From IMG/VR virus record IMGVR_UViG_3300021843_000436: DNA of 64,000 nucleotides; one strand, written 5' to 3'. The stretch comes from an uncultured virus (IMG/VR IMGVR_UViG_3300021843_000436) (lineage: Duplodnaviria; Heunggongvirae; Uroviricota; Caudoviricetes). Positions 874-55,805 of this stretch are shown here, piece after piece; position 1 is the stretch's first letter, and the number at the start of each line of letters is the position of its first letter. The notes beneath the pieces are model-generated. The model was not told the DNA's origin. It did not search any database and saw nothing but the letters and a program-made list of their open reading frames with translations. Both the position numbers and the translations under genes were made by a program.

Positions 874-900
874 ATTCTGCATTAAGACCAGATTCCAAAT

Positions 901-916
901 CCTCTTTTTTTCTTTG
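901..916 (+). terminator. Possible archaeal oligo-T terminator after integrase
   Basis: CCTCTTTTTTTCTTTG about 30 bp after the integrase stop codon. Confidence 0.4.
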
Positions 917-946
917 ACCATAACTGTTATATTCATTCCAGTAATT

Positions 947-961
947 CCATAGGAATTATGG
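947..961. promoter_or_regulatory. CCATA-N5-TATGG palindromic operator, copy 1
   Basis: CCATAGGAATTATGG overlapping the ATG at 958; one of seven exact consensus copies. Confidence 0.7.
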
Positions 962-1610
962 AGGCAACAGAAATTCCTGAGTTTAAGCCTAAGAAGAGCT
1001 TAAACATGGCACAGCTGGCAGCTAACATGAAGGAAGAGATGACTGTGCTCTTTGGCTCAAAGCCAGAGAACCTCACCTTTGCAGGCTTCAGAATCTATTG
1101 CCTAGATAAAAAAGAGGGATACCTCTCAGCCACCAGCTATCTTTCTAAGGGCATTGACCTGGCAGCCTTTGGTTCTGAGGATCAGGCTGTGAAAATTGAT
1201 CCCAGCCTTCCTGACTATGATAAGAAGCTCCTGCTCAGGGGCTCAGCTCTCATCTATGCATCTATGCTCTCCTGGAGGGTGTCAGGACCCAGAATCATGA
1301 GGTCCTGCAGGCATGTAGCACCCTCTGGGAGGAGGCCAAATTCTTCAAAGACCCAGCTCCCACTCTGGATCAGGTGCTGGAGGAATATTCTGCAGCTATC
1401 AAAGCCTGGCCAGAGCATGATGACTTGGAGAGCCAAGTGAGCAGCCTGGAGTCAGACCTGCAGGACATGGAGTCTGAGAGGGATGAAGCCCAGGAAGAAG
1501 TGGAGCAGAAGCAGCAAAGAATCCAGGAGCTAGAGGCTGAATTGACCAGGAGAGATGAGGAGCTAGATGATCTGCAGGAGAAGCTGAAGGAGGCTCAGGC
1601 CAGTAACTGA
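958..1610 (+). pseudogene. Coiled-coil protein gene split by an 8-bp tandem duplication
   Basis: CATCTATG is repeated at 1251-1258 and 1259-1266. Removing one copy joins ORF 958..1440 to ORF 1374..1610 into one 214-aa ORF (..GSALIYALLEGVRTQNHEVLQ..DQVLEEYS..). Confidence 0.8.
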
Positions 1611-1726
1611 GGTCTTCCTACCCTGGCCTCCAGGGAAGCCTGTCCCTCCAGGCTGGAAGCTGATCTCTGGAGAAGAGAGGACAAAAAGGGAGCAGCAGAT
1701 GATCAATTTCATAAATCAAAACACTA

Positions 1727-2143
1727 TTGGTGAACATGATAATAGTAGAAGAGACACCTAAAAAGAAGGAAAGGCCCTCAGCAACTCTGAGGACCCTAAC
1801 TGGAGGACCCTCCAGGGAAAGCACAAAGAGCAGAGAGCTTCTGGCAAAGCTCAGAAGAATCATCCAGGGAACGGAGGAGGGCCTGGAGGAGTTGGCCTCT
1901 CTGGAGCATGATCAATGGGCTGGCTGGATGAGACACCTCTTTTCAAAATGTTATCAGGGCAACGGAGGCTCTCTGATAATCCCACCCCATCTGGTGGCCA
2001 GGTGGCAAAGACAGATGAAGACTTCCTATGCAAATCTGCCTCCTGAAGAGAAGGAACCTGATAGGGTAGAGGCTAGGAAGGTCTTAGGGTTGAAGTGGCT
2101 GGAGGAGGAGGAAGGCCATGACTGCAGTGGTCATGGTCTATGA
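1727..2143 (+). CDS. Hypothetical protein with RyR-repeat-like domain
   Basis: LASLEHDQW...SYANLPPEEKEPDRVEA matches the RyR-domain pattern LA..EH..W...Y..L.E.EKE.DR. Confidence 0.55.
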   Translation: MVNMIIVEETPKKKERPSATLRTLTGGPSRESTKSRELLAKLRRIIQGTEEGLEELASLEHDQWAGWMRHLFSKCYQGNGGSLIIPPHLVARWQRQMKTSYANLPPEEKEPDRVEARKVLGLKWLEEEEGHDCSGHGL

Positions 2144-2564
2144 GGGAGACTGGAAACCTATGGTAGATAAGCCAAAGAAAGAGCCTGCAGCTCAGTCCTT
2201 AGAGGATGGCACCCCTGGAAAAGCTGCCCAGAGAAAGAATAGGCTGAAGCATAAGCTTCTGGAAAAGGCTGAGCTTGATAAAAAGAGGGCTGAGGACCTG
2301 AAGAGAAAGAGGCAGCAGGCTGTGGAGCTTATTGCAGTCCTGACTGAGGATGTCATGGAGGGTGGAGATCAGCTCCTCCTGGATGGCATAGACAGCCTTT
2401 TCCAGGTCCTGGAGTGGGAGAAGCCTTTCTGGCCCAAAGGGACACCTGAGCAGGAGCCCAGGCAAAGGCTGAAGGTCCATCTAGCTGCCTGCCTACCTAA
2501 CTATCTGCAGGCCCTGAAGCTCTGCATGGAGCAGAAGAAGGCTCAGGAGGGTCAGCATGCATAA
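2118..2564 (+). CDS. Hypothetical protein
   Basis: Overlaps neighbours in an operon; GGAGG upstream; codon usage matches the core genes. Confidence 0.7.
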   Translation: MTAVVMVYEGDWKPMVDKPKKEPAAQSLEDGTPGKAAQRKNRLKHKLLEKAELDKKRAEDLKRKRQQAVELIAVLTEDVMEGGDQLLLDGIDSLFQVLEWEKPFWPKGTPEQEPRQRLKVHLAACLPNYLQALKLCMEQKKAQEGQHA

Positions 2565-2721
2565 TGTCTCTGATCAGGTCATGCTGGATGCCAGGAGGAC
2601 TGTCAGTGCCTTGAATCTGGAGGAGGTCATCCAGGAGGCCCTGGAGCAGGGAGATGTGGAGTCTCTGAAGGGAATCTTCTGCCTGGAGTTTGATCCTATG
2701 GAGGCTGGTTATGCCAGCTAA
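2557..2721 (+). CDS. Small hypothetical protein (54 aa, MHNVSDQVMLDARR...; not in ORF track)
   Basis: ATG at 2557 preceded by GGAGG, open to TAA at 2719-2721, overlapping the upstream stop. Confidence 0.6.
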   Translation: MHNVSDQVMLDARRTVSALNLEEVIQEALEQGDVESLKGIFCLEFDPMEAGYAS

Positions 2722-2856
2722 TGGGTGGAGGCCATAAATGGGTCTCTCTGAGTTCCTATTTTTTGGGTCTGGATTCCATAGTATTCATAGTTTTTATGCT
2801 TTACTAGATACTTACTGTTTGATTATGGAAAGGCTTAAATCTAATTGAAAGCCATA

Positions 2857-2882
2857 GGCAGGGGTGGCAGGGGTACCCCTGC
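2857..2882. promoter_or_regulatory. GGCAGGGGT iteron pair with 16-bp palindrome upstream of primase-helicase
   Basis: GGCAGGGGTGGCAGGGGTACCCCTGC; perfect palindrome GCAGGGGTACCCCTGC at 2867-2882; the same motif forms the two large elements at 5346 and 54862. Confidence 0.7.
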
Positions 2883-2910
2883 ATGAGTTTATAAAAAGTA
2901 ATATTTGTGA

Positions 2911-5271
2911 GTGAATACCATGACTTTAACTGTGGAAATTTCACCTCAATTGCAGAATGAGGGCTTTAGATTCTGCAAAGTGGCAAAAAGAGATAAGAAG
3001 CCCTTTGAGCAGGGGTGGTCAAAGAAGGGCTACTCTTATGATGATCCAATTCTGAAGTCCTGGCTGGAATCTGGTGGCAATTATGGGGTTCTGGGAGGAC
3101 ATGGAGACCTTGTGATCTTTGATGCTGATGACCTGGCCAGACTCCAGGAGCTGGGAGTTATAGCTCTCCTGCCAGAGAGCTTCACTGTCAGGACCCCTGG
3201 AAGAGGAGGCTGGCACATTTACCTCATCTGCCCAGGCATTGAGAAGAAGATGGCCCTCTATGATCCTGAAAAGACCTCCACAGATGCCAAAGGCAGGGAG
3301 CAGTTTGTCCATGTGGCTGATCTGGTGGCCCTGGGCATGCAGGCAGTAGGCCCAGGGTCCATAAGGGAGATCCCCAGGGAGGATGGCACTGAGACCAGAG
3401 CCTATGAGGTCATCAAAGACCTACCTATAGCCCATATCACTGAAGATCAGCTAAAGGAGGCCATTAAGGTCCTGAGGATCACTCCCAGGATGGATAAGAA
3501 GAAGACTGCAGAAGGCAAAGAAGAGCAGCCCCAGAAGGCAGGTTATAGGAGATGGTCTGACACTCTGCATGTGGAGGACATCCTGCTGCCTGAGAACATT
3601 GTGGTGGATAATCTGGACATCACTGGAGAGCTGCAGGGAGCACATCCCATTCATGGCTCAGAAACTGGGAGAAATTTTGCCATCAATGTGAAAAAGAATA
3701 ACTGGGTCTGCTTCAGATGCCACCCACCTGAGGGAAAAGGTGAGGCAGGTAAGGATTACTGTGGAGGTGGCCCCTGGGAGCTGCTGGGCATTAGAGAGGG
3801 CATTATAACCTGTGATGACTGTTATAAGGGGTGGAGGAGAGATCAGCCTGAAAAATGGGCTGCTATCCTCAGGAGAGCCAGGGATCTGGGAATAGAGGTG
3901 CCCAGGCTGCCTGATGGAGATTCCATGTCTGAGCTGAGGAGAGATATCATAAGATATTGTGTGGAGGTCCTCATGGGCTCAGAGCATATCAGGACCCTGC
4001 ATTCTGGTGAGATCCTACTCTATGAGAATGGGGTCTATAAATTTGAAGGAGACATCCTCCTGGGCAGCATGATCCAGCAGTTGGGTGGCCCTCAGACAAC
4101 TAATACTGTGGTGCTGGAGGTACTTGGACAGATAAGAAGGCTGACAGCTACTGACTTCCTGGACTTCGATAAGGATCCTTACAGGATCAGTGTGAAGAAT
4201 GGTATCTTAAACCTGAATACTGGGCATCTGGAGCCCCATGACCCTGAATTTTTAACAGTCATCCAGATCCCAGTGGACTTCAAACCTGGAGCTGATTGCC
4301 CTGAGATAAAGAAGTTCATGACTGAAATTGTGAAGGATAAGGATCTAGCTCTTATGGAGGAGATGGCAGGATATTGCCTTCTCAGGGCTCATAATATCCA
4401 TAAAGGCTTTCTCTTGCTGGGAGAGGGTAGGAATGGGAAGTCCACCTGGGTGAACCTCCTGGCAGCCCTGGTGAGCCTGGAAAACACCTCCCAGGTCCCT
4501 CTGCAGCAGCTGGGCAGGAAGTTCAAGACCAGTGAGCTGAAGGGGAAGCTGATCAACTTCTATACTGATCTGCCTGATCTCACAGTAGCTGTGACTGATG
4601 CCTTCAAGATAGTTACCTCTGGAGACCCCATGACCATTGAGGAGAAGTATAAGGCCCCTCAGAAAATGATCAATTACTCAAAGCAGGTCTTCAGTGCTAA
4701 TGCCCTGCCAAAGTGTCTGGATGAGACCTATGGCTTCTTCAGCAGGCTGATTCTAATAGACTTCCCCAACAGATTTGAGGGAGACAATGCTGATCCATTC
4801 CTCCTGAAGAAGTTAACCACCCCAGAAGAGCTGAGTGGCTTCCTGAATTTAGCTATCTCTGGGTTGAGGAGGCTTTTGCAGAACCAGCATTTCTCCTATG
4901 ATATGAGTGTGGATGACATAGCTGAGGAATACCAAAGAAGATCAGCTCCTGCTATGGCAGTGACTGACTTTGTGGGTGCCACTACCCTGAAGAATACCTC
5001 TGATGCTGTGCTGAAAGAAGACCTGTGGCTGGCTTATAGAGGCTGGTGCCTGGAAAATGGAGAAAATGAACTGCCTAAGGAGAGCTTCTTCAAAGGGGTC
5101 TATTCTGCTTATGCTGTCTCAAATACCAGGATCTCAGAGGACGGCTTCAGGAGACCCGCTCTGAGGGGCCTGGTGCTTTCAGAGGAAGGCAGGAGACTGG
5201 CAGATCTAGGAAAATCCATTTCTCCAGAGTATGCTAAGTCTGGCCAGAGAAGGGCTGAGGTGGCAGGGTAG
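2911..5271 (+). CDS. Primase-helicase (bifunctional Prim-Pol + Zn finger + D5/P4-type SF3 helicase)
   Basis: GNYGVLGGHGDLVIFDAD and TVRTPGRGGWHIY (Prim-Pol); HPIH...CFRC (Zn finger); VKNGILNL (D5_N); Walker A GEGRNGKST; SANALP. Confidence 0.93.
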   Translation: MNTMTLTVEISPQLQNEGFRFCKVAKRDKKPFEQGWSKKGYSYDDPILKSWLESGGNYGVLGGHGDLVIFDADDLARLQELGVIALLPESFTVRTPGRGGWHIYLICPGIEKKMALYDPEKTSTDAKGREQFVHVADLVALGMQAVGPGSIREIPREDGTETRAYEVIKDLPIAHITEDQLKEAIKVLRITPRMDKKKTAEGKEEQPQKAGYRRWSDTLHVEDILLPENIVVDNLDITGELQGAHPIHGSETGRNFAINVKKNNWVCFRCHPPEGKGEAGKDYCGGGPWELLGIREGIITCDDCYKGWRRDQPEKWAAILRRARDLGIEVPRLPDGDSMSELRRDIIRYCVEVLMGSEHIRTLHSGEILLYENGVYKFEGDILLGSMIQQLGGPQTTNTVVLEVLGQIRRLTATDFLDFDKDPYRISVKNGILNLNTGHLEPHDPEFLTVIQIPVDFKPGADCPEIKKFMTEIVKDKDLALMEEMAGYCLLRAHNIHKGFLLLGEGRNGKSTWVNLLAALVSLENTSQVPLQQLGRKFKTSELKGKLINFYTDLPDLTVAVTDAFKIVTSGDPMTIEEKYKAPQKMINYSKQVFSANALPKCLDETYGFFSRLILIDFPNRFEGDNADPFLLKKLTTPEELSGFLNLAISGLRRLLQNQHFSYDMSVDDIAEEYQRRSAPAMAVTDFVGATTLKNTSDAVLKEDLWLAYRGWCLENGENELPKESFFKGVYSAYAVSNTRISEDGFRRPALRGLVLSEEGRRLADLGKSISPEYAKSGQRRAEVAG

Positions 5272-5345
5272 GCCCCTCAAAACTTTTCTATTTTATGGTC
5301 TTTTTCCAAGAGGGGATCATTTTAATAAGTCATGCTAGATGAAAA

Positions 5346-5736
5346 TGGCAGGGGTGCCAAAGTCAGAAAATGGGCAATTAACGCTGTTATTTCACTATCA
5401 GCAGCCACCTGGCTGGGGTGGCAGGGGTACCCCTCCCCTAACCTTTACTATACTCTCCCTCCTATACTANNNNNNNNNNNNNNNNNNNNNNNNNNNNNNN
5501 NNNNNNNNNNNNNNNNNNNNNNNNNNNNNNNNNNNNNNNNNNNNNNNNNNNNNNNNNNNNNNNNNNNNNGGGGTGGCAGGGGTACCCCTCCCCTAACCTT
5601 TACTATACTCTCCCTCCTATACTATTTTCCTTACTCTTCTAATAGAGGAGGGGTACCCCTGCCATGTCTGCCAGGCTGCTCTGCATATCGAAATAACGCC
5701 GTTAACTGTGTAAAATGTGGAGATTGACCCCTGCCA
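5346..5736. repeat. Large imperfect inverted-repeat element, copy A (putative replication origin)
   Basis: Arms of about 90 bp bounded by TGGCAGGGGT...ACCCCTGCCA, with inner GGCAGGGGTACCCCTCC / GGAGGGGTACCCCTGCC around a pyrimidine/AT-rich spacer; lies just downstream of the primase-helicase; contains the N gap. Confidence 0.75.
5470..5569. other. Scaffold gap (100 N), probably an artefactual join of overlapping contig ends
   Basis: The 55 bp before the gap (5415-5469) are identical to the 55 bp after it (5570-5624). Confidence 0.85.
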
Positions 5737-5881
5737 TTATTATAGTGAAGAAGTTATAAACTAAATAGATTCTATTATGGATTATTTTAGGAAAAGACTT
5801 ATTAACATGGCTTTGTTAAATCTAAATGTGGATATAAAATCCATAATTAAGAAAAGGACCATTAAAAAGAGGTGAAAAGCT

Positions 5882-6499
5882 ACGAAAATTAACATCTGTG
5901 CCTTATTGGTCCTGGCTATCTATTTGGTTACTCTGATCCCTTCACTGGCTAACACCATCTCAGAGGATGTGATGGTCTTAGGGAATGGAATTGGCCATTT
6001 TACTACTGATGCAAAGGAGGCCAAAGAGAGAGCCATAGGCCAGGGAATGCAAAGCTACTCAAAGAGACTCAATTGGACCCAGGATGAGGGAAACTATACC
6101 TTTGGGTCTGACTATGTGATACAGGCATCTCAGAAGAATATCTGGAATCAGTTTATGCTTTCTGCTAATAGCCAAAGGGTAGGCTGGCAAAGCAATTTAA
6201 GAGCCAGCAATCTAGGAAACTTTACTGGAGCTGGCAGAATGCAGCTGAATCCTGAGAGTTTTGATACTCAATACTTCATGCAGGGTGATGGAGTATTGCA
6301 GGGCAGTGTCATAGATGGCACTGGAAAGCATCCTGAATGGGTTACCACCACCTTTGTGAATGGAAGCTTTGTCATAAACAGTCATGTTAATATAAGCAAA
6401 CCCATGCCTATCAATGTTGACTGGCTGTCATTCTGTGAGGGCAGCTATCTTCCAGTCCCTGCTGGGATCATGAAGGCCCCAACTCCACTAAAAGGATAA
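5882..6499 (+). CDS. Secreted/surface beta-rich protein with signal peptide (start uncertain: ACG 5882 or TTG 5906)
   Basis: GAGGTGA at 5869-5875, then in-frame ACG-AAA-ATT.. giving (M)KINICALLVLAIYLVTLIPSLA, a typical signal peptide. Confidence 0.65.
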   Translation, partial: TKINICALLVLAIYLVTLIPSLANTISEDVMVLGNGIGHFTTDAKEAKERAIGQGMQSYSKRLNWTQDEGNYTFGSDYVIQASQKNIWNQFMLSANSQRVGWQSNLRASNLGNFTGAGRMQLNPESFDTQYFMQGDGVLQGSVIDGTGKHPEWVTTTFVNGSFVINSHVNISKPMPINVDWLSFCEGSYLPVPAGIMKAPTPLKG

Positions 6500-6509
6500 A
6501 ATAAAAGGC

Positions 6510-7199
6510 TCAGCATACAATAGGTGGGCTTACTGTCATTTTTTCTTTTCGATTGGCAGCAAATTCTGTGAGCCACTCCCTGTCTGCATACTTTGTTATT
6601 TCCTGGACTTTCTCTGCAGGATAGAAGACAAACTGGCCAACTGTGTCACATTCCAGGGGTGTCAGAGGCACATAGATCATGTGAGGGATATGCCTATACT
6701 TTCTCTGTTTCTTCTCCAGCCAGTGAAGGCTCTGCTGGGGCCTCTCAGGATTAAACCAGAAGAATTGGAGGTTCCATTCCTCTCCTATGTAGCCTACCTT
6801 TGCATCAATGCCATTCATGTCATCTTGTACATCATAATAGACATAGGTGAAGGCATCTGATTCCTTAAGCCTGACTAGAAATTCCAGATCTCTCACAAAG
6901 CTGACATAAGTCCTGCCCAGCCTTCTAGTCCAATCTCCAGGCTTGAAGCCATGCTTCTTCAGCCAGTCGGTGGCCATTTCGGTATGCTTAAGGCAAAATT
7001 CTTTCTCGCTAGGTGGCACCTGCTGCCTATCGGCCAGCCTCATGAAAAGCTCTCCAAAGGGCATTATCCCTTTAGGCTCAGCCCTTTCAATCTCCTTGGG
7101 CACATAGGTGTCATAGATTCTGCAAGTATTCATAGCCCATTCACGTATTCCCATAGTTGTAAAGCCGGAAAGATCTGGTCTATATCCCATTATATTCAT
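6510..7199 (-). CDS. TaqI-like PD-(D/E)xK endonuclease, no cognate methyltransferase in window
   Basis: RRLGRTYVSF...DDMNGIDAKV...LQ resembles the TaqI core as recalled (ARLYRTAVS...LDAQGIDALI...IQIK); the Lys of QxK is absent (LQFF). Confidence 0.55.
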   Translation of the reverse strand: MNIMGYRPDLSGFTTMGIREWAMNTCRIYDTYVPKEIERAEPKGIMPFGELFMRLADRQQVPPSEKEFCLKHTEMATDWLKKHGFKPGDWTRRLGRTYVSFVRDLEFLVRLKESDAFTYVYYDVQDDMNGIDAKVGYIGEEWNLQFFWFNPERPQQSLHWLEKKQRKYRHIPHMIYVPLTPLECDTVGQFVFYPAEKVQEITKYADREWLTEFAANRKEKMTVSPPIVC

Positions 7200-7259
7200 C
7201 TCCAGTGCTTTTAGGTCAAATTATGGGAGGACTACTAATTCATCTCCTTGAAATCCTTT

Positions 7260-7274
7260 CCATAGGACCTATGG
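7260..7274. promoter_or_regulatory. CCATA-N5-TATGG operator, copy 2
   Basis: CCATAGGACCTATGG plus an extra half-site (AAACTATGG), next to a minus-strand TTAAATA box upstream of the nuclease gene. Confidence 0.7.
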
Positions 7275-7481
7275 AAACTATGGAATATTTAACCTTATAA
7301 AATTATCTGTTGAAAATAATTCAAATTAAAATAATTGAGATGGATTGTGATTATTCGTGATGTATAGTTAAAAAATAATATACTGATCTTATGTGGAAGG
7401 TCTGGGAGACTTCTATGGTAGTTATGGGAGACTTATGGAGCAAAGTCTTAAATATTGGTGCTATGGAATATAGAGAAATCG

Positions 7482-8054
7482 ATGGCAGGAAACGTAAAAT
7501 CTAATCAAAAAACCCTGGAGCAGAGGGGCCTGGCCACAATTGCCATGACTTACCCTGAAGAGATGGGGATCATCGCAGTGGCCCATGACCTGAGTGAGAG
7601 GACAGGAGAGCAGGTCTCTCCAGACATGGTGGCCAGCCTGAGAAAGAGGCTGAAAGCAGGGAAGTCCTACAGAGAGGCCCTCCTGCAGGTGGAGAGGGCT
7701 GACATCAGATTCAAGTTGAAGACCCTGGCAAAGGACCTGAGGGACCTCTTTGATGAAGCCTCAGGGGAATCAGATCTCATGAGGGCCAGGGCCTACTCAG
7801 GCCACACCCTGGCTGGTGTTTATAAACAGCTCTATGATCACCTGGGTGATGAGATCGAGAGGGTGAGAGAAGAGGAGAATGGAGCGGATGGTGAAGAAGA
7901 GGATGCTGATTTTACCCTGGTGGAAGATGATGAGCCCCATGCTGCCCCTGCCCCTGCCCCTGATCCTGCCCAGCTCCCAGGACCTGCCCCTGGGGAAGTG
8001 GCCACTGATCAGACTCCTGCCTCTGATGATGGGCCAAGGGAAGTGGTCCTTTAA
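7482..8054 (+). CDS. Probable terminase small subunit
   Basis: Directly upstream of and abutting TerL; helical N-terminus with acidic/Pro-rich tail (ORF track start 7455; ATG at 7482 preferred). Confidence 0.55.
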   Translation: MAGNVKSNQKTLEQRGLATIAMTYPEEMGIIAVAHDLSERTGEQVSPDMVASLRKRLKAGKSYREALLQVERADIRFKLKTLAKDLRDLFDEASGESDLMRARAYSGHTLAGVYKQLYDHLGDEIERVREEENGADGEEEDADFTLVEDDEPHAAPAPAPDPAQLPGPAPGEVATDQTPASDDGPREVVL

Positions 8055-9686
8055 ATGTCTCATAGGGATCTCAAGACTAAAATAAAACTAAGTTCAAAAT
8101 TAAAGAAGAAGATCTCAGCCTCACTGGAGAGGCCCCTGAGACAGAGGGAGATCCAAGAGCTGGAAAATTCCTTTTGGGACCTGAAGAGCTTCACTAATAC
8201 CGTTTATAGGTGGGCTGTAGAGAAGAAGTTTGGAGGCTTTACTTCTGGCCAGTATGTAAACAGGATGTGTGACTTCCTGCAGTCAAATCCCTGGACCCTT
8301 TATGTAGGCCCCAGGGCTCACTGGAAGTCCATGAGGTTCTATGACTTGAACCTCTGGGATATCTGGAGATATCAATTCCTGCCTAAGATAGATCCAGTCC
8401 ACACCACCAGGGACTTCAGGGTGCTCTATGGCAGCTACAAAAAGAACCTGGCTGATGAGCACATCCTACAGATCAAAGAGCTGGTCATAAACTCCATCAT
8501 GCCAGACCTGGGTCTGAGGGATGCCAAGAAGGATGCTGAGACCCTGGCCACCTGGAGCTGGGATAATGGGGTCCATAAATTTAGGATTAAGACTTTTGGT
8601 ATGCTGGAGGGTGTCAGAGGAGGGCACTCAGAGAGGGTCTATGTGGATGATCCTTTTAAGGACCCTAAATCCATCACAGCACCCACAGGCATTTTTGAGA
8701 TCAATGGTCTCTTTACGGGCACAGTCATGTCCATCCCTGTGGACAGCCCTTATGAAGTAGGCCAGCTCCATGTGATAGGCACCCCTCAGACAGAGGTGGA
8801 TTTCTTCTATGACCCTAATATTTTAAGGGCCTTCACCAGGGCAAATGGCAGCCCAGCCTATCTATATGAGAAGGCTATCATGCTGACCAATGGCCAGGAG
8901 ACCCCTCTCTGGCCAGAGATGTATTCCCTGGAGAAGCTCCATGAGATGAGAAGATCCAGGAAGGTCAGGCTGCAGGGAGGCACCATCAGCCTCTTTGAGC
9001 AGGAGTACATGTGCCAGCCCAGGTCCTCAGCCACCAGCTACTTCAGCCACATTAAGATCCTGCCAGACCAGCATCTGATGAATCTGGACTTTGCCACCAA
9101 AGCCATTCCTGAGTTTATTTATTCAGGAAAATCTATAATAGCAGGCTATGACCCAGGCAAAAAGGTCCACCCTGCCCACTTTGTAGTGCTGCATTATCAA
9201 AACAGGCACTATTTCCAGCTCCTCTCCAAGTGGTTTGACCATGTGGATTATTCAGTGCCAGATCAAGATACTGGTTATTCTCAATTTACTTATATAAATA
9301 AGGCTGTAAATTTCTTTGGCATTGGAGTGGTCTATGGTGATAACACTCATGGAGAGCTGGCCCAGTGTGAGGAGCTGGGAAACAATGGAGAGGAGACCTC
9401 CACCATCTTCAATCTTCAGCCTATCACAATTAACAGGGAGATGAAGACCAGGATAGGAATTGAGCTGGACACCGTGCTCAGCTCAGGCAGGCTTCATCTC
9501 CTGGATGATGACAGGCAGCTAAGGTCTCTCAATGCAGTCCAGGGGGACCTGTCAATAGTAGAGGGCACAGATCATCATGGTGAGGGTTTCACCTCCCTGG
9601 GATTGCCCATAGTCCACATGGAAGCCCAGGCTGGCAGGATGAATATAGCTCAGGCCCCAGGCATGTATTTCATGAGTCCTGCATAG
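8055..9686 (+). CDS. terL: Terminase large subunit
   Basis: Walker A GPRAHWKS, Walker B VYVDDP, coupling motif IGTP, FEQEYMC, nuclease IIAGYDPG. Confidence 0.92.
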   Translation: MSHRDLKTKIKLSSKLKKKISASLERPLRQREIQELENSFWDLKSFTNTVYRWAVEKKFGGFTSGQYVNRMCDFLQSNPWTLYVGPRAHWKSMRFYDLNLWDIWRYQFLPKIDPVHTTRDFRVLYGSYKKNLADEHILQIKELVINSIMPDLGLRDAKKDAETLATWSWDNGVHKFRIKTFGMLEGVRGGHSERVYVDDPFKDPKSITAPTGIFEINGLFTGTVMSIPVDSPYEVGQLHVIGTPQTEVDFFYDPNILRAFTRANGSPAYLYEKAIMLTNGQETPLWPEMYSLEKLHEMRRSRKVRLQGGTISLFEQEYMCQPRSSATSYFSHIKILPDQHLMNLDFATKAIPEFIYSGKSIIAGYDPGKKVHPAHFVVLHYQNRHYFQLLSKWFDHVDYSVPDQDTGYSQFTYINKAVNFFGIGVVYGDNTHGELAQCEELGNNGEETSTIFNLQPITINREMKTRIGIELDTVLSSGRLHLLDDDRQLRSLNAVQGDLSIVEGTDHHGEGFTSLGLPIVHMEAQAGRMNIAQAPGMYFMSPA

Positions 9687-9826
9687 AGTTAAATCCAGGA
9701 GCCTGAAGCTATCATTCTCACTTTCGCTCCACATGCAGGTTATCTTGATATACTTGGATTAACTTATGTGCATTTCTTCCCTCCCATAGGTTTGGGAGGG
9801 ATTTATGGAATGGGAGTGAAAAAAAG

Positions 9827-10096
9827 ATGTGTGGAGCAGTACAATCTGCCTCTCAGCAGAACGAGGGGCTGAGGGTATTTGTTTTAAGAAGATTTGTGGA
9901 AGAGGGAGATTCAGACTGGCATAGGGGCCTGGATGTAGTGGTGGCTCATAATGAGGAGGAGGCCAGAGATCTGGCTGAGGCTGCCCATCCAGGTAATAAA
10001 AAATTTGGTCCTTATAAAAGCGTTAAAATAATCGATATAGATAAGCCCCATTTTGCCTATGGCAGGGCTTTTGATGCTCAGTTTATTCATTGGTAA
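9827..10096 (+). CDS. Hypothetical protein
   Basis: VVVAHNEEEARDLA motif common in small viral proteins; GGAGTGA upstream. Confidence 0.6.
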   Translation: MCGAVQSASQQNEGLRVFVLRRFVEEGDSDWHRGLDVVVAHNEEEARDLAEAAHPGNKKFGPYKSVKIIDIDKPHFAYGRAFDAQFIHW

Positions 10097-10137
10097 ACAG
10101 GACTATACCTCCACTTTTCTTCTCTTTTTAAGCAAAT

Positions 10138-10152
10138 CCATAAATACTATGG
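10138..10152. promoter_or_regulatory. CCATA-N5-TATGG operator, copy 3
   Basis: CCATAAATACTATGG overlapping the ATG at 10149. Confidence 0.6.
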
Positions 10153-10670
10153 CAGCCCAGCCCAGGACTGGAGTGAGTCTTATGGACACTTCAGAATATT
10201 CTAAGGAGAAGCTCCTGGCTGATTTGAAGGCAGGGGCAGTGAATATCATAGCTCTCAGGCCCCTAAGGGCTGGAGAGCAGGAAGCCTTTGACCAGGTTAT
10301 GGGGAAGCTTAGACAGGGAGCCTCCTGGCTGGGGCTGGTGACCAATGATAAGGTGGCTGTATTCTATGAGTGGCCTCTGGCCCAGAGGATGGCAAAGGAC
10401 TATGCAGACCTGACTGAGTTGGTCAACAAAGGGGATGGCTACAGTCTGCTTCATATTGAGAAGCTGGACATCATGGCTGGGGTCCTGAAGGCTGCAGAGA
10501 CCCTCCTGCAGGAGAGGCAGATCCTCCTGCTCTTTGACTATGACGGCTACCCTGGAGGAGCCAGGATGGTCAGCTTCTTCATAGTGCCTATGGAAGGCTT
10601 TGAGGCCCATGACCCTGGCTTTGAAAAGGTCATCAAAAAGGTGAAGGAGGGAGGTGAGACCAGTGGCTGA
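10149..10670 (+). CDS. Hypothetical protein
   Basis: Part of ORF 10053..10670; core-like codon usage begins at ATG 10149. Confidence 0.65.
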   Translation: MAAQPRTGVSLMDTSEYSKEKLLADLKAGAVNIIALRPLRAGEQEAFDQVMGKLRQGASWLGLVTNDKVAVFYEWPLAQRMAKDYADLTELVNKGDGYSLLHIEKLDIMAGVLKAAETLLQERQILLLFDYDGYPGGARMVSFFIVPMEGFEAHDPGFEKVIKKVKEGGETSG

Positions 10671-10902
10671 GGCTCAGAAGCTCCTGGAGAAAATCCAGGG
10701 CTGGAAGCAGAAGAGGGATAATCCCAAATATTTTGGGACAACTGATGAGGCTCTTCATTATGCTGTAGAGGTCAGGGAGAATGCTATGTTGGATCTCTTT
10801 GGCCATCCCTGGCAGGAGTTTTCCTCTGCAGATGACCAGGAGGGAGACATCCTGGATGAGCTGGAGGCCATGCTCCAGAAGTTTATCCAGGAAACAGCCT
10901 AA
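10654..10902 (+). CDS. Hypothetical protein
   Basis: Overlaps the upstream gene; GGAGGTG RBS region. Confidence 0.6.
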   Translation: MRPVAEAQKLLEKIQGWKQKRDNPKYFGTTDEALHYAVEVRENAMLDLFGHPWQEFSSADDQEGDILDELEAMLQKFIQETA

Positions 10903-10923
10903 CCATAAGATCTATAAGTAATC

Positions 10924-11433
10924 ATGTTAGCTATAGTTCCTGGAGGAACTATAATGGCTATGAGTGCTCCTATAGAGAGAATTTCAGATAAACAGGGCAT
11001 GTGCCCTGAATGTGGATGGACTGGATCTTTCACCTTTGTGCCCCTTCCAAAGGAGCTGGGTGGAGGACGGTTCTTCCTGATCTGTAAAGACTGTGCTGCA
11101 GTGGCTGAGGTCACCAGAGAGCCTGATTCTGAGAATCCTGATTTCCTGAAGTGCATTCCTTTTGAAGGCATAGGGTCCGACACTCCCACAGGCAAAATAG
11201 GAGACTATGGTGCCCTGAGGACTGTCAGGAATTACAGGATCAAATACGTCACAGCCACTGGTAGGCAGGTCACCTGGATGGACTTTGTGGAGCAGATGGG
11301 CAGAGACCCTGAGCTTCTTCTGCAGTGGAGGAATGAGGAGCTGGCTGCAGAGGGGAAGAGAGTGGAGCCCTTCAAGGTCACAGATGCAAAGCCTGGGCAG
11401 AAGCCCTTTGCAGGGCCTTTCAAGGTAGGATAA
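10924..11433 (+). CDS. Zinc-ribbon protein
   Basis: CPECG...CKDC pair. Confidence 0.65.
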   Translation: MLAIVPGGTIMAMSAPIERISDKQGMCPECGWTGSFTFVPLPKELGGGRFFLICKDCAAVAEVTREPDSENPDFLKCIPFEGIGSDTPTGKIGDYGALRTVRNYRIKYVTATGRQVTWMDFVEQMGRDPELLLQWRNEELAAEGKRVEPFKVTDAKPGQKPFAGPFKVG

Positions 11434-46057: not shown

Positions 46058-46344
46058 GCTATGCCCTCCAGGTTTGCCCAGGCTTCCTGCTCTTTGGCTT
46101 TCATCTCCTCTCCCATCCTCTGCAATTCAGCCTGGATAGGCTCATAAAAGGCTGAGGCCATTCCCACTGGGGCTATAGTGGCATAGACCACCTTAGGGAC
46201 TCTGAATCTCTCAAAGAATTTGCAGGAATGGCACCACATCTGATATTCAATATAATATGTAGTTTCTATCCTCCTTTGCTGATTTATTATGCTGCAATTT
46301 GGGCAAACCTTCTGAGAGCCATAAGTGAGCCGAACCTCCTCCAT
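46051..46344 (-). CDS. Zinc-finger hypothetical protein
   Basis: CPNC...CHSC. Confidence 0.6.
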   Translation of the reverse strand: MEEVRLTYGSQKVCPNCSIINQQRRIETTYYIEYQMWCHSCKFFERFRVPKVVYATIAPVGMASAFYEPIQAELQRMGEEMKAKEQEAWANLEGIAC

Positions 46345-47530: not shown

Positions 47531-50500
47531 CTAATCCTCCTCCATGACCTCCAGGGGCATGTCAAATTTACTGAATCTATGGACCTTTGGACTCAGGAAG
47601 AGATCCTGGGCCAGAGAGGGGATCTTCTCATCTTCAGTTACCCTGAAAAATTTTCCTCCAGTGCAAGAGACTGAGATGCTACCTGTGATGGATTTACCCC
47701 ATTTTAGTGGCCTAATCTTCGGTGAAGACATGGCTATACATTCATGGGCCTCAAAGTCATTGTATAAGACGATCCTGAAATATTCATTTTCAGCCTTAGA
47801 CCTGAATGGCCCTGCTATGTAACCCACCACCCACTGGCCTTTAGCAGAAGACTTCAGATGCCACATCACTTCATTCTCTTCCGTGGTTTTCTCCTTTGCC
47901 TGCAGCTCCTCCAGGATGTAATACCAGTATGCTCCTCTGTAGATCCAGACATTCCTGAAGCCATCCTCCAGGTTTGGAATCTGGCTCTTTGCTCTAAAGA
48001 CTCCTGAGCCATCCTCTACAGTAAAGTCCTGCATGGTGGCCTCCATGATGACCTGGGCCTTCATGACCTCACCCTCCTCCATCTGACCCAGTGTCCTAGG
48101 ATTGATGGTCTTATAATGAGGCAGTGGGATCATGGTATAGTCCTTCAGGGAGACCTCCCTGCCATCCAGACAGCCAGTGGCCTCAAAGAGCTTCTGTTTA
48201 GCATCTGTGAGGGGCTTCCCTCCTTTGATCCTGTCTATGAGCTGCTGGCCAGTCTTCAGAGCTATGCCCTTTATGCAAGTCAGCCCCAGCTGGATCTCAT
48301 CCCTCTCACCAGTGGTCTCCAGCTGTGGATGCCTTATGCTGGGCCTCCTGATGGGGATCAGCATCCTATCAGCTTCTCTCAGGATCTCCCTTCTCTCTTT
48401 GCCCTCTGTTTTAATGTTCATCCAGGTAGCTGCAGCCAGGGCTGGATTCAGCATCTTCAGATAGATGGTCATAAGAGAGACCCAGGCATAGGCCACTGCA
48501 TGGGATCTGTTAAATCCATAGCCAGCCCAGAGGAGGATCTCCTTCCACTGCTTCTCCTTTGCAGGGTCCTTCAGCTGCTCCTTCAGGGTACCGTCCTCCA
48601 GGGCCTGCAGCTTATCCAGCTTCTTCTTTGAGATTGCTCTCCTGGCCTGGTCTGCTTCCTGCATGGACATACCAAAGATTATATTCAGGGCCTTCAGGAC
48701 CTGCTCCTGGTAGATGATCAGTCCATAGGAGTCCTCTGTGCCCTTCATGGCCTCATAGGGCTCTCCATCCACTCTCCTCTTCTTATAGAGATCAATGAGG
48801 GGCCTGGTGCCTGGTCTATTAAGGGCCACTATTCTGACCACATCTTCAAAGTGCTCAGGAGGGACCTCCTTCATGAGCTGCTCTCCAGCCTGGGTGCCCA
48901 GCTGGAAGATGCCGTAGGGATAGAGCCTGGCAAAGAGCAGCATATCAGCTATGTCATCATTTGGCAGCTGGTGAAGCTCCCAGTCCAGCTGTTTCATGGC
49001 TGCAGGAAGGTCAACTCCCTCAGAGACAGAGGTTCTGGGCTTCAGCATCTCAGCTATAAAGTCCAGGGTATCCAGACCCAGCACATCAAATTTAGGGATG
49101 TTCAGCTCCAGGATGTCCCTCAGCTCCAGCTCTATGGCCAGCCCTGGGCCATCCTTCTTTGCCCTGGTGAGTGGGATAGTCTCTGCAATATTTGGCAGGG
49201 CCACCACACCAGCTGCATGGATTCCCTTATGCCTGATATGGCCATCCAGGTGATCAGTTAGCATCCTGATGCTTTCTGCCACTTCATCTGAGAGCTTATC
49301 AGTGAGGAGGGCCTCCTGATCCACCCTCTTCAGCCAGCAGGCATCTCTGATCATGAGCTTCTCATGCCACCTGGCATAAGTGGAGATCTGAGCTGTTTGC
49401 CTGCCCACAATATCTCCCAGGATCTGAATGGCCTCCTGCCTTCTGGACTTCTGGACATCCAAATCAAAATCTGGAGGGTCCTTTCTTCCTTCTGGGAGGA
49501 ATCTCTCAAAGAGGAGCTTTTGAGTGATGGGATTAATTCTGGTGATGTCCAGGATGTAGCTGATGAAGCTTCCTGATGCTGATCCTCTTCCAGGTCCTCT
49601 GAGGATGCCAGCCTTATCCAGCCTCTGACATAGTTCATATTCAATGATGAAATACCAGGCAAAGTCAGACTTTGTAATCCTGTCGTATTCCATATCTACC
49701 CTGGCAGCCAGAGCCTCTTCTCCTCCCATAGCTTCTAACTCTGCCTTTGGGGTTCTTCCCAAAAAGGCCAGGAAACTCTTATACACCAGCTCCCTGAAGT
49801 TGAGATGAGAGACACAATCCTTAGGAGCGGGAAAAGTCCTGGGCAGGCTAAAGTCAAAGTCAGAAGCAAACTTCCTGGTCATATCGATAACCATAGCAGC
49901 CTCATCTTCCTCCAGGCCCAGGTTTGCTATGACCTCAGCTTCACTCTGATAATAATAAGAATTGCCAGGGAAATAATCATCCTTATAGACCAGGGTCCTG
50001 TCTTTGTAGATAATGCTGGCAGCTGCCACTTTTGGACCCCTCTCATCCCAGGAGTTATAATGGGAGTCACAGGTGGCTATCACCAGGAGATCCTCTCTGC
50101 AGGCCAAGGCATAAGCCCATCTGTTAAACTCATGCTGCTGCTCCAGGTCTGGATGAGGCATGATCTCTATGACCAGTTCTCCTCCTGCTGCAGCTATCTC
50201 AGCCCAGGTCTTCATGAACCAGGCTTCAGCCTCTTCTGGGTCTTCCATCCACTTCTGGAAAAGGAGACCACCTTTGCAGGCAGTGCCAAAAGCCAACCCC
50301 TGGGCATGCTCTATGAGGTGCTGCAGAGGGATCAGGGGCTTCCTCTTAAAGTGATTCACCACAGCATCATTATGAAGATGGATCAGATTCTTCCAGCCCT
50401 CAGGAGATTTGACCCAGATGGTCATGTGGCCCTTCCCAGGACCTTCTGCCTTGTTGTCTATGGAGAGAATATAATCAATGCTACCCCATTCTTTCTTAAG

Positions 50501-51478
50501 CTGTTTTGCCACCTGAGATCTACCATTAAGCCATTCATTGAATTTCTCAGGCAATTCTTTCATAGCTTCAGTCTCTGTAACTTCGTTTGCCTTGCCCAAA
50601 GTAAGCTTAGAGAGATGCTCACCATTATGGGTCATATTCACAGTCCAGTATTTCTTTCCATTTTTGTTAGTGTCATTTTGGACTGGATGAGCATCAATGA
50701 TCACAGTGCATGAATTCTCATCTCCTTCTTCAATTTCTTGAATATAGCCCTCATAACCAATGATGGGCTGGACCCCATGCTTCCTGCAGGCTGATTCAAA
50801 CTGATATACTCCAGCCATAGTGCCATGATCAGTCAGGGCCAGGTGAGTGATCCCCAGGTTTGCTGCCACCTTTGCCATGTCCTCAGGGCTCCTGATGGAG
50901 TCTCCCACACTAAAATCACTATGGCAGTGGAGTTGTGGGATCTGATGGACCTGGGGTGGCTTTGTCCCTGGGAAATTTTCAAAGAGATATGTGAGAGCCG
51001 TCAGCAGGTCTGATCTATACATATCCTCAGTATATCGTGAATTATGGCTCAGATAATTAGGATGATAGACCATCTTATGCTCGATATTCAAAGCAGTGAG
51101 AGCTTTATCTGCAGTATTTCCCAGGGCCAGGATCAGCTTAGGCTGGAAACATTCCACCTGCTGCTTTAGGAATGACAGGCAGGAGTTAATCTCCTGGGCT
51201 CTGGGAGCCCTCAACCCTGGAGGGTGACACTTCAGGACATTGATCATAGCATAATTCTCCATCCCCAGCTCTGAGAGGAGCTTCCTGAGAGTATGCCCAT
51301 CAGGTCCACAAAATGGGACTCCTCTCTCCAGCTCCTTTTCCCTGGGAGCCTCACCCACACAAAGGAGATCCACTTTCTCAGGATCTCCTATGATGGTGCC
51401 CACCACATGGCCCTCCAGTTTGCAGACATTGCACTGCCTGATCTTCTGGCCAATTTCTTTGAGCTTCTCCATCTGCAT
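47531..51478 (-). CDS. dnaE: Family C DNA polymerase (DnaE-like) with N-terminal family-4 uracil-DNA glycosylase domain
   Basis: UDG: CNVC, VGEAP, NVLKCHPP, YHP. PHP: LHCHSDFS, ALTDHG, TCDSHY. Pol: GPGRGSASGS, FERFL, PPDFDLD, HAAG, KFDVLGL, YGFNRSHAVAY. Confidence 0.93.
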   Translation of the reverse strand: MQMEKLKEIGQKIRQCNVCKLEGHVVGTIIGDPEKVDLLCVGEAPREKELERGVPFCGPDGHTLRKLLSELGMENYAMINVLKCHPPGLRAPRAQEINSCLSFLKQQVECFQPKLILALGNTADKALTALNIEHKMVYHPNYLSHNSRYTEDMYRSDLLTALTYLFENFPGTKPPQVHQIPQLHCHSDFSVGDSIRSPEDMAKVAANLGITHLALTDHGTMAGVYQFESACRKHGVQPIIGYEGYIQEIEEGDENSCTVIIDAHPVQNDTNKNGKKYWTVNMTHNGEHLSKLTLGKANEVTETEAMKELPEKFNEWLNGRSQVAKQLKKEWGSIDYILSIDNKAEGPGKGHMTIWVKSPEGWKNLIHLHNDAVVNHFKRKPLIPLQHLIEHAQGLAFGTACKGGLLFQKWMEDPEEAEAWFMKTWAEIAAAGGELVIEIMPHPDLEQQHEFNRWAYALACREDLLVIATCDSHYNSWDERGPKVAAASIIYKDRTLVYKDDYFPGNSYYYQSEAEVIANLGLEEDEAAMVIDMTRKFASDFDFSLPRTFPAPKDCVSHLNFRELVYKSFLAFLGRTPKAELEAMGGEEALAARVDMEYDRITKSDFAWYFIIEYELCQRLDKAGILRGPGRGSASGSFISYILDITRINPITQKLLFERFLPEGRKDPPDFDLDVQKSRRQEAIQILGDIVGRQTAQISTYARWHEKLMIRDACWLKRVDQEALLTDKLSDEVAESIRMLTDHLDGHIRHKGIHAAGVVALPNIAETIPLTRAKKDGPGLAIELELRDILELNIPKFDVLGLDTLDFIAEMLKPRTSVSEGVDLPAAMKQLDWELHQLPNDDIADMLLFARLYPYGIFQLGTQAGEQLMKEVPPEHFEDVVRIVALNRPGTRPLIDLYKKRRVDGEPYEAMKGTEDSYGLIIYQEQVLKALNIIFGMSMQEADQARRAISKKKLDKLQALEDGTLKEQLKDPAKEKQWKEILLWAGYGFNRSHAVAYAWVSLMTIYLKMLNPALAAATWMNIKTEGKERREILREADRMLIPIRRPSIRHPQLETTGERDEIQLGLTCIKGIALKTGQQLIDRIKGGKPLTDAKQKLFEATGCLDGREVSLKDYTMIPLPHYKTINPRTLGQMEEGEVMKAQVIMEATMQDFTVEDGSGVFRAKSQIPNLEDGFRNVWIYRGAYWYYILEELQAKEKTTEENEVMWHLKSSAKGQWVVGYIAGPFRSKAENEYFRIVLYNDFEAHECIAMSSPKIRPLKWGKSITGSISVSCTGGKFFRVTEDEKIPSLAQDLFLSPKVHRFSKFDMPLEVMEED

Positions 51479-54025: not shown

Positions 54026-54111
54026 AGAGACACCCTTCCTATATAAGTTTTATGGAAACTATGGCATAGCTGGAAAAAGCTCAAATACACTTAATTCCTA
54101 TAGAATAGCTG

Positions 54112-54762
54112 ATGACACGAACTGATGAAAATTTTAATGTGCTTCAGGAGACTGTGCCACATGGGATCTCAGCCTCCAGAATCCATGCCTGGATGTTTTG
54201 CTCCAGGAGCCACCAGCTGAAATATGACATGGGCCTCCCAGGAATCACAGGACCTGCAGCCAGGATAGGTGTGAAGATGCATGATAGAATAGCCCAGGCC
54301 CTGCAAAATGGCACTGAGCCCCATCTGCCCGGTAAATGGCTGGCCAACTATCATGAGATGTGCCAGGACCTGCAGCTCTCAGATAACCTGCTGATAGAAA
54401 AGCAACTGGAGGGGCAGGCCCAGGGAGAGGCCATCCTGGGCTATTTGGATTTGATAGACCTTGATCAATGTTTCATCTTAGACTGGAAGACTGGCAAAGT
54501 GCATGGCTATCCTGTCCAGGCTTACATCTATAGCATGCTGGTGGATCAGCTCCTGGGTGAGCCTTTGCCCATGTATTATGCTTACATCAAGCATGGAAAA
54601 TTGATCCCCACCACTAAGGAAGATTTGATCAAAGGGAGAAGAATCTTCCAGAGATTTGTTAATCGCGACTCCAGATATTTACCATGTTTTAATGGCGAAT
54701 CCAATAAGTGCTTAAAATGCAGCTACAGGGTGCCCTGTGCTATGGTTTGTCAGGGCCTTTAG
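54112..54762 (+). CDS. Cas4/RecB-like PD-(D/E)xK exonuclease
   Basis: ISASRI...C, GYLDLI, DWKTG, QAYIY, C-terminal CLKC..PC. Confidence 0.85.
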   Translation: MTRTDENFNVLQETVPHGISASRIHAWMFCSRSHQLKYDMGLPGITGPAARIGVKMHDRIAQALQNGTEPHLPGKWLANYHEMCQDLQLSDNLLIEKQLEGQAQGEAILGYLDLIDLDQCFILDWKTGKVHGYPVQAYIYSMLVDQLLGEPLPMYYAYIKHGKLIPTTKEDLIKGRRIFQRFVNRDSRYLPCFNGESNKCLKCSYRVPCAMVCQGL

Positions 54763-54861
54763 GCCCTTCTTCCTTTTCTCTGTGTGACTTTTTGATAATT
54801 AGGCCAAACCTCCAGATGGATTCCTGGAGGCCAGGTATAAAAACCAGCATCAGTGATGGCC

Positions 54862-55096
54862 TGGCAGGGGTCAAACATCGAACTTTACGGAGTTCACACC
54901 GTTATTTCGATATGCAGAGACACCTGGCGGGGGTGGCAGGGGTACCCCTCCCCTAACCTTTACTATACTCTCCCTCCTATACTATTTTCCTTACTCTTCT
55001 AATAGAGGAGGGGTACCCCTGCCATGTCTGCCAGGCAGCTCCTGTTATTGAAATAACGACGTGAACTGTGTAAAACCTAGAGATTGACCCCTGCCA
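54862..55096. repeat. Large imperfect inverted-repeat element, copy B (putative origin/second cis site)
   Basis: 54930-55036 is identical to 5570-5676 (107 bp, direct orientation); arms TGGCAGGGGTCAA...TTGACCCCTGCCA; extra tandem TGGCAGGGG pair at 55151-55169. Confidence 0.8.
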
Positions 55097-55194
55097 ATAG
55101 ATAGCAATAGACACTATTTTGATTTAGAATAAAATTTGCCCCGCCCTTTCTGGCAGGGGTGGCAGGGGTGGTCCTCAAAGACTTTTCTAAAAAG

Positions 55195-55228
55195 CTATAA
55201 ATACCATAGTAACTATGGTATAAGTGGA
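55195..55228 (+). promoter_or_regulatory. TATA promoter with operator copy 6
   Basis: CTATAAATACCATAGTAACTATGGTATAAGTGGA; nearly identical to 58195-58228. Confidence 0.8.
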
Positions 55229-55233
55229 TAGCT

Positions 55234-55368
55234 ATGAAAGCATGCATTGGCTGTGGAAGGGATATGACCACCAAGAAAATTGAAGGCTGGGTCCCTGGGA
55301 AGGGATTCCTGTGCAATGAATGTATTCAGAAAACTGACGCGAAGGAGGCAATCCATGCCCATTGGTAA
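55234..55368 (+). CDS. Zinc-finger microprotein (44 aa; not in ORF track)
   Basis: MKACIGCGR...FLCNECIQ..., starting right after the promoter (leaderless-like). Confidence 0.6.
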   Translation: MKACIGCGRDMTTKKIEGWVPGKGFLCNECIQKTDAKEAIHAHW

Positions 55369-55648
55369 AAAGATATTATTTCCTCATGGGAAGACGGTGA
55401 TCACTCCTGCAGCTCTGGAGGTCCTGCAGGAGCTGGACATCATCCAGCTCCTGGGATGGCACCTAACTGGAGACTGGAGTCAGATGTCTGAGGCTGACAG
55501 GGCTGCTAATGCCCAGGCCCTGGAGAATGGCTCCAGGATCTTCAGCTCCTATGAGGTGAAGGGCCAAAACATCTGGGTCATCACTGATGCTGTGGGTGAG
55601 GATGGACAGAGGGCTAGCACCTGCATTCTATTGCCTGGAGAATACTGA
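55355..55648 (+). CDS. Conserved mobile-element protein of unknown function
   Basis: LFPHG..VITP, H..GDW, AN..AL..GSRIFSSY, IWVIT, T.ILLP.EY; GGAGG before ATG 55355. Confidence 0.75.
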   Translation: MPIGKKILFPHGKTVITPAALEVLQELDIIQLLGWHLTGDWSQMSEADRAANAQALENGSRIFSSYEVKGQNIWVITDAVGEDGQRASTCILLPGEY

Positions 55649-55805
55649 ATTGATCTAATATACTAGAGAAAGGAAAAGGTGATTTGAGGGAATTGTTGAT
55701 GAGTTATGATGTATCTTCTGGTGTTTTTTGCACTCAATTGATTGAAGTGATACTATTTTAGGAAAAGCATGATCCCCAAGTAAAACGGAAGGATTTGAAT
55801 TAAAT

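Follow-up and report, generated by a model that had tools for sequence, protein, structure and literature searches.

Why should a virus whose GC content is 47.7% contain almost no CG dinucleotides? The question is raised by a 64,000-nucleotide stretch of DNA (the window) from an uncultured virus, IMG/VR record IMGVR_UViG_3300021843_000436. This is a temperate myovirus from a lineage that infects the methane-making archaeon Methanothrix, coding for an integrase, a D5-type primase, terminase, portal, sheath, and baseplate proteins, a thymidylate synthase, a thymidylate kinase, a UDG-fused DnaE, and an SNF2 helicase. The depletion is real and strong, and it is not explained by the textbook route; it amounts to a form of target-site avoidance for which there is one specific candidate enzyme, a solitary TaqI-like nuclease encoded at 6510-7199 on the minus strand, and its cause is unproven. 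The viral DNA is almost certainly under genome-wide purifying selection against CG, at about 3 to 4 scaled units per site.

Positions 874 to 55650 contain 225 CG dinucleotides against 3,112 expected, an observed/expected ratio (o/e) of 0.072, which bears out the near-total avoidance described in a preliminary description of this DNA. Its hand counts are reproduced both in the core (1 CG versus 57 expected at 11641-12600) and in a foreign island (14 versus 15.6 expected at 57241-57660). GpC is normal (o/e 1.0), and C and G spaced by one to seven bases occur at o/e 0.98 to 1.19, such that solely the adjacent C-G pair is depleted. Arginine is, as previously remarked, almost all AGA/AGG (CGN makes up 2% of arginine codons in the virus versus 60% in 106 host open reading frames [ORFs]). 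The depletion is nevertheless not limited to arginine codons: it is seen at the 1-2, 2-3, and 3-1 codon junctions (o/e 0.03, 0.04, and 0.10, respectively) and in intergenic DNA (0.14), and, with no tRNA in the window, an arginine or tRNA effect is ruled out. The extent given earlier, 874-55650, is indeed depleted but is too short, as the depletion resumes past the island (21 CG versus 341 expected at 58187-64000) and reaches the window end. In a provirus 95 to 98% identical to the window, carried by the one-contig, 98% complete Methanothrix genome G001, the CG-poor core continues to about 75 kb. The HEPN moron, thought to have normal CG, is half depleted (10 versus 21 expected), and the normal CG ascribed to the inserted island holds for the counted sub-stretch but not for the island as a whole. 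Recent gene imports are not yet purged of CG. By CG content, the window is divided as follows.

1-873, plus strand: terminal tyrosine integrase of the provirus, CG o/e 0.22.
874-18057, unstranded: left part of the CG-purged core, with primase-helicase, terminase, portal, and head genes (100-N gap at 5470-5569).
18174-19025, plus strand: HEPN moron, 33% GC, CG o/e 0.47 (G001 has another insert instead).
19248-55649, unstranded: CG-purged core with head, contractile-tail, and replication genes.
55650-58186, minus strand: foreign two-gene island, 37% GC, CG o/e 0.74 (G001 and the relative G107 have other inserts instead).
58187-64000, unstranded: CG-purged core after the island, o/e 0.06, beyond the coordinates first reported.

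The two insertion hot-spots (18058-19247 and 55650-58186) hold cargo that differs among the window, G001, and G107, all of it above the core in CG and often defense-like (HEPN; DUF488; UvrD, PD-(D/E)XK, and Mrr). The 13-fold contrast in CG also serves to locate the borders of the provirus and genes imported recently.

The case for selection comes from comparing the window with the G001 provirus. At synonymous third positions, T/C before G differs at 51 sites and A/G after C at 21 sites. When fitted to control sites, with blocks ranging from 300 bases to the entire window, a two-state model gives under CG hypermutation 148 to 176 and 51 to 64 such differences (199 to 240 versus the 72 seen), and under selection, at a scaled strength of 3.2 to 3.9, 35 to 36 and 10. 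The observed CG-involving differences are near the selection prediction, slightly above it; CG gain is reduced about five-fold, and turnover is one third of the hypermutation prediction. AGR codons cannot arise through deamination, and among 368 arginines conserved with G107 (15 genes) the codon is AGR in both viruses at 361 and CGN in both at none, which argues against deamination. Glycine codons before G are redistributed proportionally rather than to T alone, from C 0.47, A 0.28, and T 0.17 in the host to C 0.01, A 0.55, and T 0.35 in the virus, and there is no excess of T before G. The TG/CA excess proposed earlier as a check is present (o/e 1.27), but AG/CT rises more (1.37); 100 of the 130 CG differences between the window and G001 are towards TG/CA. 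Selection is graded by the flanks, CG flanked by C or G being depleted most.

The host of the window is assigned indirectly, through the G001 provirus. G001 codes for McrA and belongs to the same genus as the genome holding the Methanothrix plasmid pGP6, and the host genus is therefore Methanothrix. Comparison with the host chromosome, as had been suggested, shows normal CG (0.92 to 1.03) in every one of 15 sampled 20-kb segments, which together cover 300 kb out of 3.6 Mb; this rules out mirroring of an equally depleted host. The virus does match G001 in GC content and in TA/AC biases. The CG loss is lineage specific, and the host and most other invaders are unaffected. The 306 CRISPR spacers in eight arrays of five family genomes, none of which matches the window, have CG of 0.71 to 1.21 per array; 41 of 42 terminase- and portal-family loci, many of them short genes whose viral origin is not shown, are at 0.65 to 1.24; and plasmid pGP6, MetSV, and Blf4 are at 0.82, 0.91, and 1.22, respectively. 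In a set of 132 terminase-related loci, some of them duplicates, the four with at least 85% identity are all CG poor (0.04 to 0.24), the 12 at 42 to 48% identity range from 0.04 to 0.76, and only 2 of the 116 more distant ones are below 0.3. One relative, L110, has a perfect 37/37 match (7196-7232) to a spacer of G025, which belongs to another genus of the host family. With selection at work in a virus of archaea and no depletion in its host, something in these cells, be it viral or cellular, reads CG in DNA.

The words avoided give some indication of what is read. CCGG and GCGC are at o/e 0.01, TCGG and CCGC at 0.02, TCGC at 0.04, ACGC at 0.06, TCGA at 0.10, ACGA at 0.16, ACGG at 0.17, and ACGT at 0.34. 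By hand arithmetic, five of the six mixed NCGN classes approximate the product of two half-site effects, ACGG being the exception; the nonpalindromic TCGG, TCGC, and CCGC (0.02 to 0.04) are as rare as palindromes, with CG normal in the host. We take CCGG to be the HpaII site and TCGA the TaqI site; 32 TCGA remain in the window, among the least avoided CG contexts, and on the indirect evidence of these residual sites plain TaqI specificity is rejected. The common restriction sites GGCC, GATC, AGCT, and CATG are not avoided by the virus, and the abundance of GGCC, GATC, and CCWGG reported earlier is confirmed. Avoidance of several 6-bp palindromes is common to host and virus (in the virus, GAGCTC 0 observed of 38 expected, CCATGG 0/27, GGGCCC 0/22, AGGCCT 1/39, and GGATCC 1/25); host CCGG and TCGA are at 1.54 and 0.96. 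When codons and CG are controlled for in the core genes (874-64000), CAAG/CTTG (0.30), CAAC/GTTG (0.44), and GAAC/GTTC (0.46) are also low, as are runs of five C/G (0.03). CAAG, CAAC, and GAAC are normal in the host, and their avoidance tracks CG loss in close relatives. Phosphorothioate (Dnd) restriction, which has GAAC as a motif, may underlie the avoidance of that word; dndC is above the cut-off in 1 of 105 host-family genomes, which is not G001.

Several genes of the window could bear on DNA cutting, repair, or nucleotide supply.

6510-7199, minus strand: solitary TaqI-like PD-(D/E)XK nuclease gene, 229 amino acids.
43828-44547, plus strand: thymidylate synthase of the ordinary methanogen type (TIGR03283 above cut-off).
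44544-45026, plus strand: resolvase-like nuclease candidate (motif seen by eye, no family match).
45032-46063, minus strand: probable ATP-dependent DNA ligase (motifs read by eye).
47531-51478, minus strand: UDG-fused DnaE-type DNA polymerase, the virus's own replicase.
54112-54762, plus strand: Cas4-like PD-(D/E)XK exonuclease.

The preliminary description had raised a virus-encoded CG-cutting nuclease as a possible cause; a candidate is now at hand in the gene at 6510-7199, and that it cuts CG is what we infer. The gene is upstream of a probable small terminase gene and is conserved like a core gene, with a ratio of nonsynonymous to synonymous substitution rates of 0.07 to 0.11. Its product has no Pfam match at E ≤ 1 and does not reach the PF09573 cut-off. 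Language-model features (Atlas) put it at 0.97 to RE_TaqI clusters (220 of 256 features), RE_TaqI is weakly matched by 6 of its 64 relatives (best 2.3e-5), and hhalign aligns it with an HpaII-locus-associated TaqI-like subfamily defined in this analysis (99.2%, E 5.5e-20, 190 columns) and with one TaqI-family protein at 91%. The predicted fold (predicted local distance difference test score [pLDDT] 88.6) has Bax1, PspGI, and Hjc as middling top matches (Z 5.1 to 6.2, root mean square deviation 3.1 to 6.5, 94 to 148 aligned), and a viral fold library gave no match at E ≤ 0.001. D127 and D132 are invariant and K164 nearly so in a 64-row alignment, the two aspartates aligning with those of two TaqI-family proteins. 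Modeling supports a homodimer, with a score of 0.50 against 0.01 for the best control; the mark that it passed was attained by 20 of the 30 solved pairs tried and by 1 of the 23 single chains. Contact agreement between runs is at least 93% and pLDDT at least 84, although a resemblance to dimeric nucleases of solved structure may account for the result. No cognate adenine methylase adjoins the window nuclease, whereas one is present at L176 and at L177, which are true TaqI-family loci. Cultured phages gave no tblastn match to three queries. As for expression, contigs from the RNA runs of one sample cover the nuclease stretch, with neither strand nor level, and may derive from DNA.

Members of the wider TaqI-like family sit within restriction loci of the HpaII type in Bacteroidota and Clostridia (L278-L341). 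Among 64 cellular loci, a C5 methylase is adjacent in 37 and RE_HpaII in 22, and all five genomes tested of the 27 with solo copies hold a methylase 68 to 76% identical elsewhere. Viral copies are accompanied by a C5 methylase in none of five records, one of which is complete. CCGG is absent from six of seven informative viral loci versus 14 of 77 control loci (p about 6e-4, the kin not being independent). The seven are those kept of 13 distinct viral_contigs loci, four having been left out for an adjacent C5 methylase (L266, L269, L270, and L271) and two for fewer than three expected sites (L275 and L277, both zero). CCGG is the most depleted 4-mer in four viral records read over 57 to 173 kb, and the complete 173-kb viral genome G694 has none against 194 expected. 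If the family served in Vsr-like mismatch repair, CCGG would be favored, yet viral carriers lack it. Among 351 genomes of the host class the family is found only in the provirus, and a PF09573 search of 401 genomes of the phylum gave two loci, both methylase linked. One partial match to the HpaII-locus-type methylase was found in 105 host-family genomes and none in G001; host CCGG is therefore probably unprotected.

We tentatively propose that selection against CG is exerted by the virus's own methylase-less, putatively homodimeric TaqI/HpaII-like endonuclease, encoded at 6510-7199. The nuclease would be silent in the lysogen and would act in the lytic cycle, cutting CG-centered sites (N^CGN), best with C/G flanks. 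Host or rival DNA, with CG every ~16 bp (62 CG/kb) and CCGG every ~150 bp, would be destroyed, and the viral genome, with CG every ~250 bp (4 CG/kb) and CCGG every ~15 kb, 100-fold rarer, would be kinetically spared, with help from the virus's own probable ligase. Self-protection would then operate through sequence avoidance and not methylation. The window, G107, and L110 all carry the gene and keep CCGG with no C5 methylase seen, and the enzyme here would therefore need to be slow or relaxed. A broader version, in which methylase-less TaqI-like nucleases are widespread anti-host weapons of archaeal and bacterial viruses, which protect themselves solely by deleting the target, and are here relaxed from CCGG to CG, is on present evidence unlikely. 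If the relaxed reading is true, the enzyme would be a CG-specific endonuclease occurring in nature, probably sensitive to methylation, and would have brought about the whole-genome dinucleotide purge.

A number of observations weigh against assigning the depletion to this enzyme. The core retains 235 CG and four CCGG, and the nuclease gene itself holds seven CG, one of them within a CCGG. The pattern of the wider subfamily, an HpaII-type methylase or no CCGG, does not hold for the window (4), G107 (42, with a 78% identical nuclease and CG of 0.17), or L110 (31, with a 24% identical ortholog and CG of 0.76), and the window sub-clade is thus not a strict CCGG cutter. That sub-clade forms a separate long branch (support 1.0), 16 to 37% identical to the wider family. 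The PDB fold matches of the window protein to PD-(D/E)XK nucleases are only of Z 5 to 6, and the family has no lysine at the usual place after the second aspartate; catalysis is putative. No copy of the gene was detected in four relatives with incomplete records (G108, L117, L115, and L112), which still have CG of 0.35 to 0.52, and the contexts avoided differ, being GCG/CGC in G108 (0.04; loci L167-L169) and TCG/CGA in L117 (0.15, with TCGA 0 versus 60 expected). Two further incomplete records, L114 and L116, have CG of 0.05 and may lack the nuclease gene (no longer records of these or of the L110 lineage were found), and in L027, the most CG-free record, the nuclease copy is frameshifted. L272, a viral locus, retains CCGG although it carries the gene, and HpaII-type methylases, like CCGG avoidance, may in any case be frequent around Bacteroidota. 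L265 (G093:C45), an unrelated tailed-virus contig of 15.8 kb and 35% GC that was placed in the bin of a genome from the host genus, its host being doubtful, has CG of 0.06 and spares CCGG. Nor is the avoidance of CAAG, CAAC, and GAAC explained by the nuclease.

The strongest rival to the viral nuclease, which we judge almost as likely while still doubtful, is a host-side defense that recognizes CG, or N-C-G half-sites, in viral DNA as it enters the cell or replicates. Such a reader might be one enzyme (a nuclease, glycosylase, deaminase, or ADP-ribosyltransferase) or several CG-site restriction systems forming a patchwork, and would bear hardest on viruses whose own replicase outruns host modification. 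Strong anti-restriction selection, seen in the avoidance of host-type 6-bp sites and of CAAG/GAAC/CAAC, is consistent with it, as are the sister lineages avoiding differing NCG contexts with no nuclease detected and the CCGG-sparing L265. So is an orphan N4/N6 methylase in G001 (L032:1246-2283, beside hemB and close to PDB 2ZIE), although it is patchy, at about 23 of 105 family genomes at 57% identity or more. The host, however, has no CG footprint, most sampled invaders are normal, and GGCC, GATC, AGCT, and CATG are spared. The single C5 methylase of G001 belongs to an NgoMIV-type system, the HpaII-type methylase, DndC, and the TaqI-like family are each as scarce as described above, and we found no candidate gene for a CG-sensing defense in the host.

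Less probable is that CG is avoided to escape host methylation followed by Type IV cutting in the next host, or that it carries a lineage-specific cost in replication or packaging. Either would explain selection with no host footprint, and an Mrr-domain gene is present in the insert of G107, but no CG-wide methylase was found in G001. Mutation alone, with CG methylated and then deaminated to TG/CA as in vertebrates and Mollicutes, was among the causes first suggested; the TG/CA rise and the direction of most CG differences fit it, but it is contradicted and very improbable given the suppressed CG gain, the low turnover, the AGR arginines at conserved sites, the larger AG/CT rise with no T excess before G, the undepleted host, and a virus with no methylase found. 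On this last point the earlier statement that no DNA methyltransferase is visible in the window stands: none was found among its 64 ORFs or among those scanned in the remainder of the G001 provirus. Equally improbable is a CG-poor main host other than Methanothrix: that the window's host is assigned through G001 leaves room for it, against which stand a near-identical provirus inside a CG-normal Methanothrix chromosome, the matching GC content and TA/AC biases, and the spacer of the host family that matches L110.

Other candidates for an agent in the window fare poorly. The thymidylate synthase is an ordinary methanogen enzyme with no sign of being a cytosine-modifying one, and the resolvase-like gene is a weak candidate, as it is present in relatives at all CG levels. 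A CG-free cassette (0.02 to 0.16) with a common phage amino-methylase is present in L113 (4569-6445), a virus at CG 0.33, and points to gene flow from CG-free relatives; the cassette is not present in the virus described here. A Type IIG gene at the G001 provirus border has near-host CG (0.81) and is outside the purged core.

We also note several structural features. A repeat of ~170 to 220 bp (90 to 93%), with an internal inverted part, is present at 5378-5739 and 54862-55099. The record G002, of 49,463 bp and described as a complete sequence with terminal repeats, corresponds to window positions 5574-55036 and ends in that repeat; G002 may reflect a break in the assembly or be a sub-genome that was excised. 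Positions 958-1541 have two frames where L027 has a single 206-amino-acid ORF, and this stretch is missing from G001. The G001 provirus has an extra arm coding for an anaerobic reductase, a dCMP deaminase, and a DHH protein. In the same provirus, the 580-amino-acid gene is split by two CG-normal ORFs (L005:18639-19777) that by eye resemble an insertion sequence.

CG loss is commonly attributed to methylation damage or to animal ZAP, and the present case reduces a compositional oddity to a question about one protein. If the viral nuclease is responsible, self and non-self would be told apart by sequence content and not by chemical marks, and the enzyme could be a CG-cutting reagent. A side result, itself testable, is that this family of nucleases is linked both with HpaII loci and with viruses devoid of CCGG.

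In vertebrates and in Mollicutes (M.SssI/M.MpeI), CpG is lost via 5-methylcytosine deamination. The window shares with such genomes a deep CG deficit with raised TG/CA, but differs in its suppressed CG gain, its shift of arginine to AGR, its lack of a T excess or a methylase, and its undepleted host. Methanobacterium virus PhiF1 (MK994522) also has a UDG-DnaE fusion, an arrangement seen here in an archaeal virus, together with a methanogen thymidylate synthase, an anaerobic reductase, and baseplate J; it has a Dam-like methylase and its CG is 0.81 over 44 of 74 kb, and the shared replication module alone is therefore not the cause of CG loss. In the openly accessible literature on CG loss in prokaryotic viruses and on solitary phage nucleases, as far as we could consult it, no report of this virus or mechanism was found, and a prior mention is possible; the portions consulted of PMC12707154 and PMC2441816 hold nothing bearing on CG loss, and those of a paper on Borgs (PMC11208441) describe YC methylation and not CG avoidance. 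Rusinov et al. (2018; PMC6286503), in the parts available to us, took sites longer than two bases and found extreme avoidance to be rarer in temperate viruses, with "CpG" and "dinucleotide" occurring 0 times in that text. The window resembles their restriction-site avoidance in the removal of short nuclease words, the 6-bp palindrome form included, and differs in that the word is a dinucleotide, the virus temperate, and the proposed enzyme viral.

The candidate protein resembles the TaqI family (PF09573) and HpaII systems (PF09561) in remote sequence, PD-(D/E)XK fold, predicted homodimer, and relatives in HpaII-type loci, and differs in having neither a Pfam match nor a cognate methylase, with TCGA weakly avoided and CCGG not fully absent. 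Phage T4 degrades host DNA while its own DNA is protected by modified cytosine. If the viral nuclease is the correct explanation, the virus described here would be similar in combining a nuclease directed against host DNA with nucleotide-supply genes; no base-modifying gene was found, and its protection would instead lie in sequence content.

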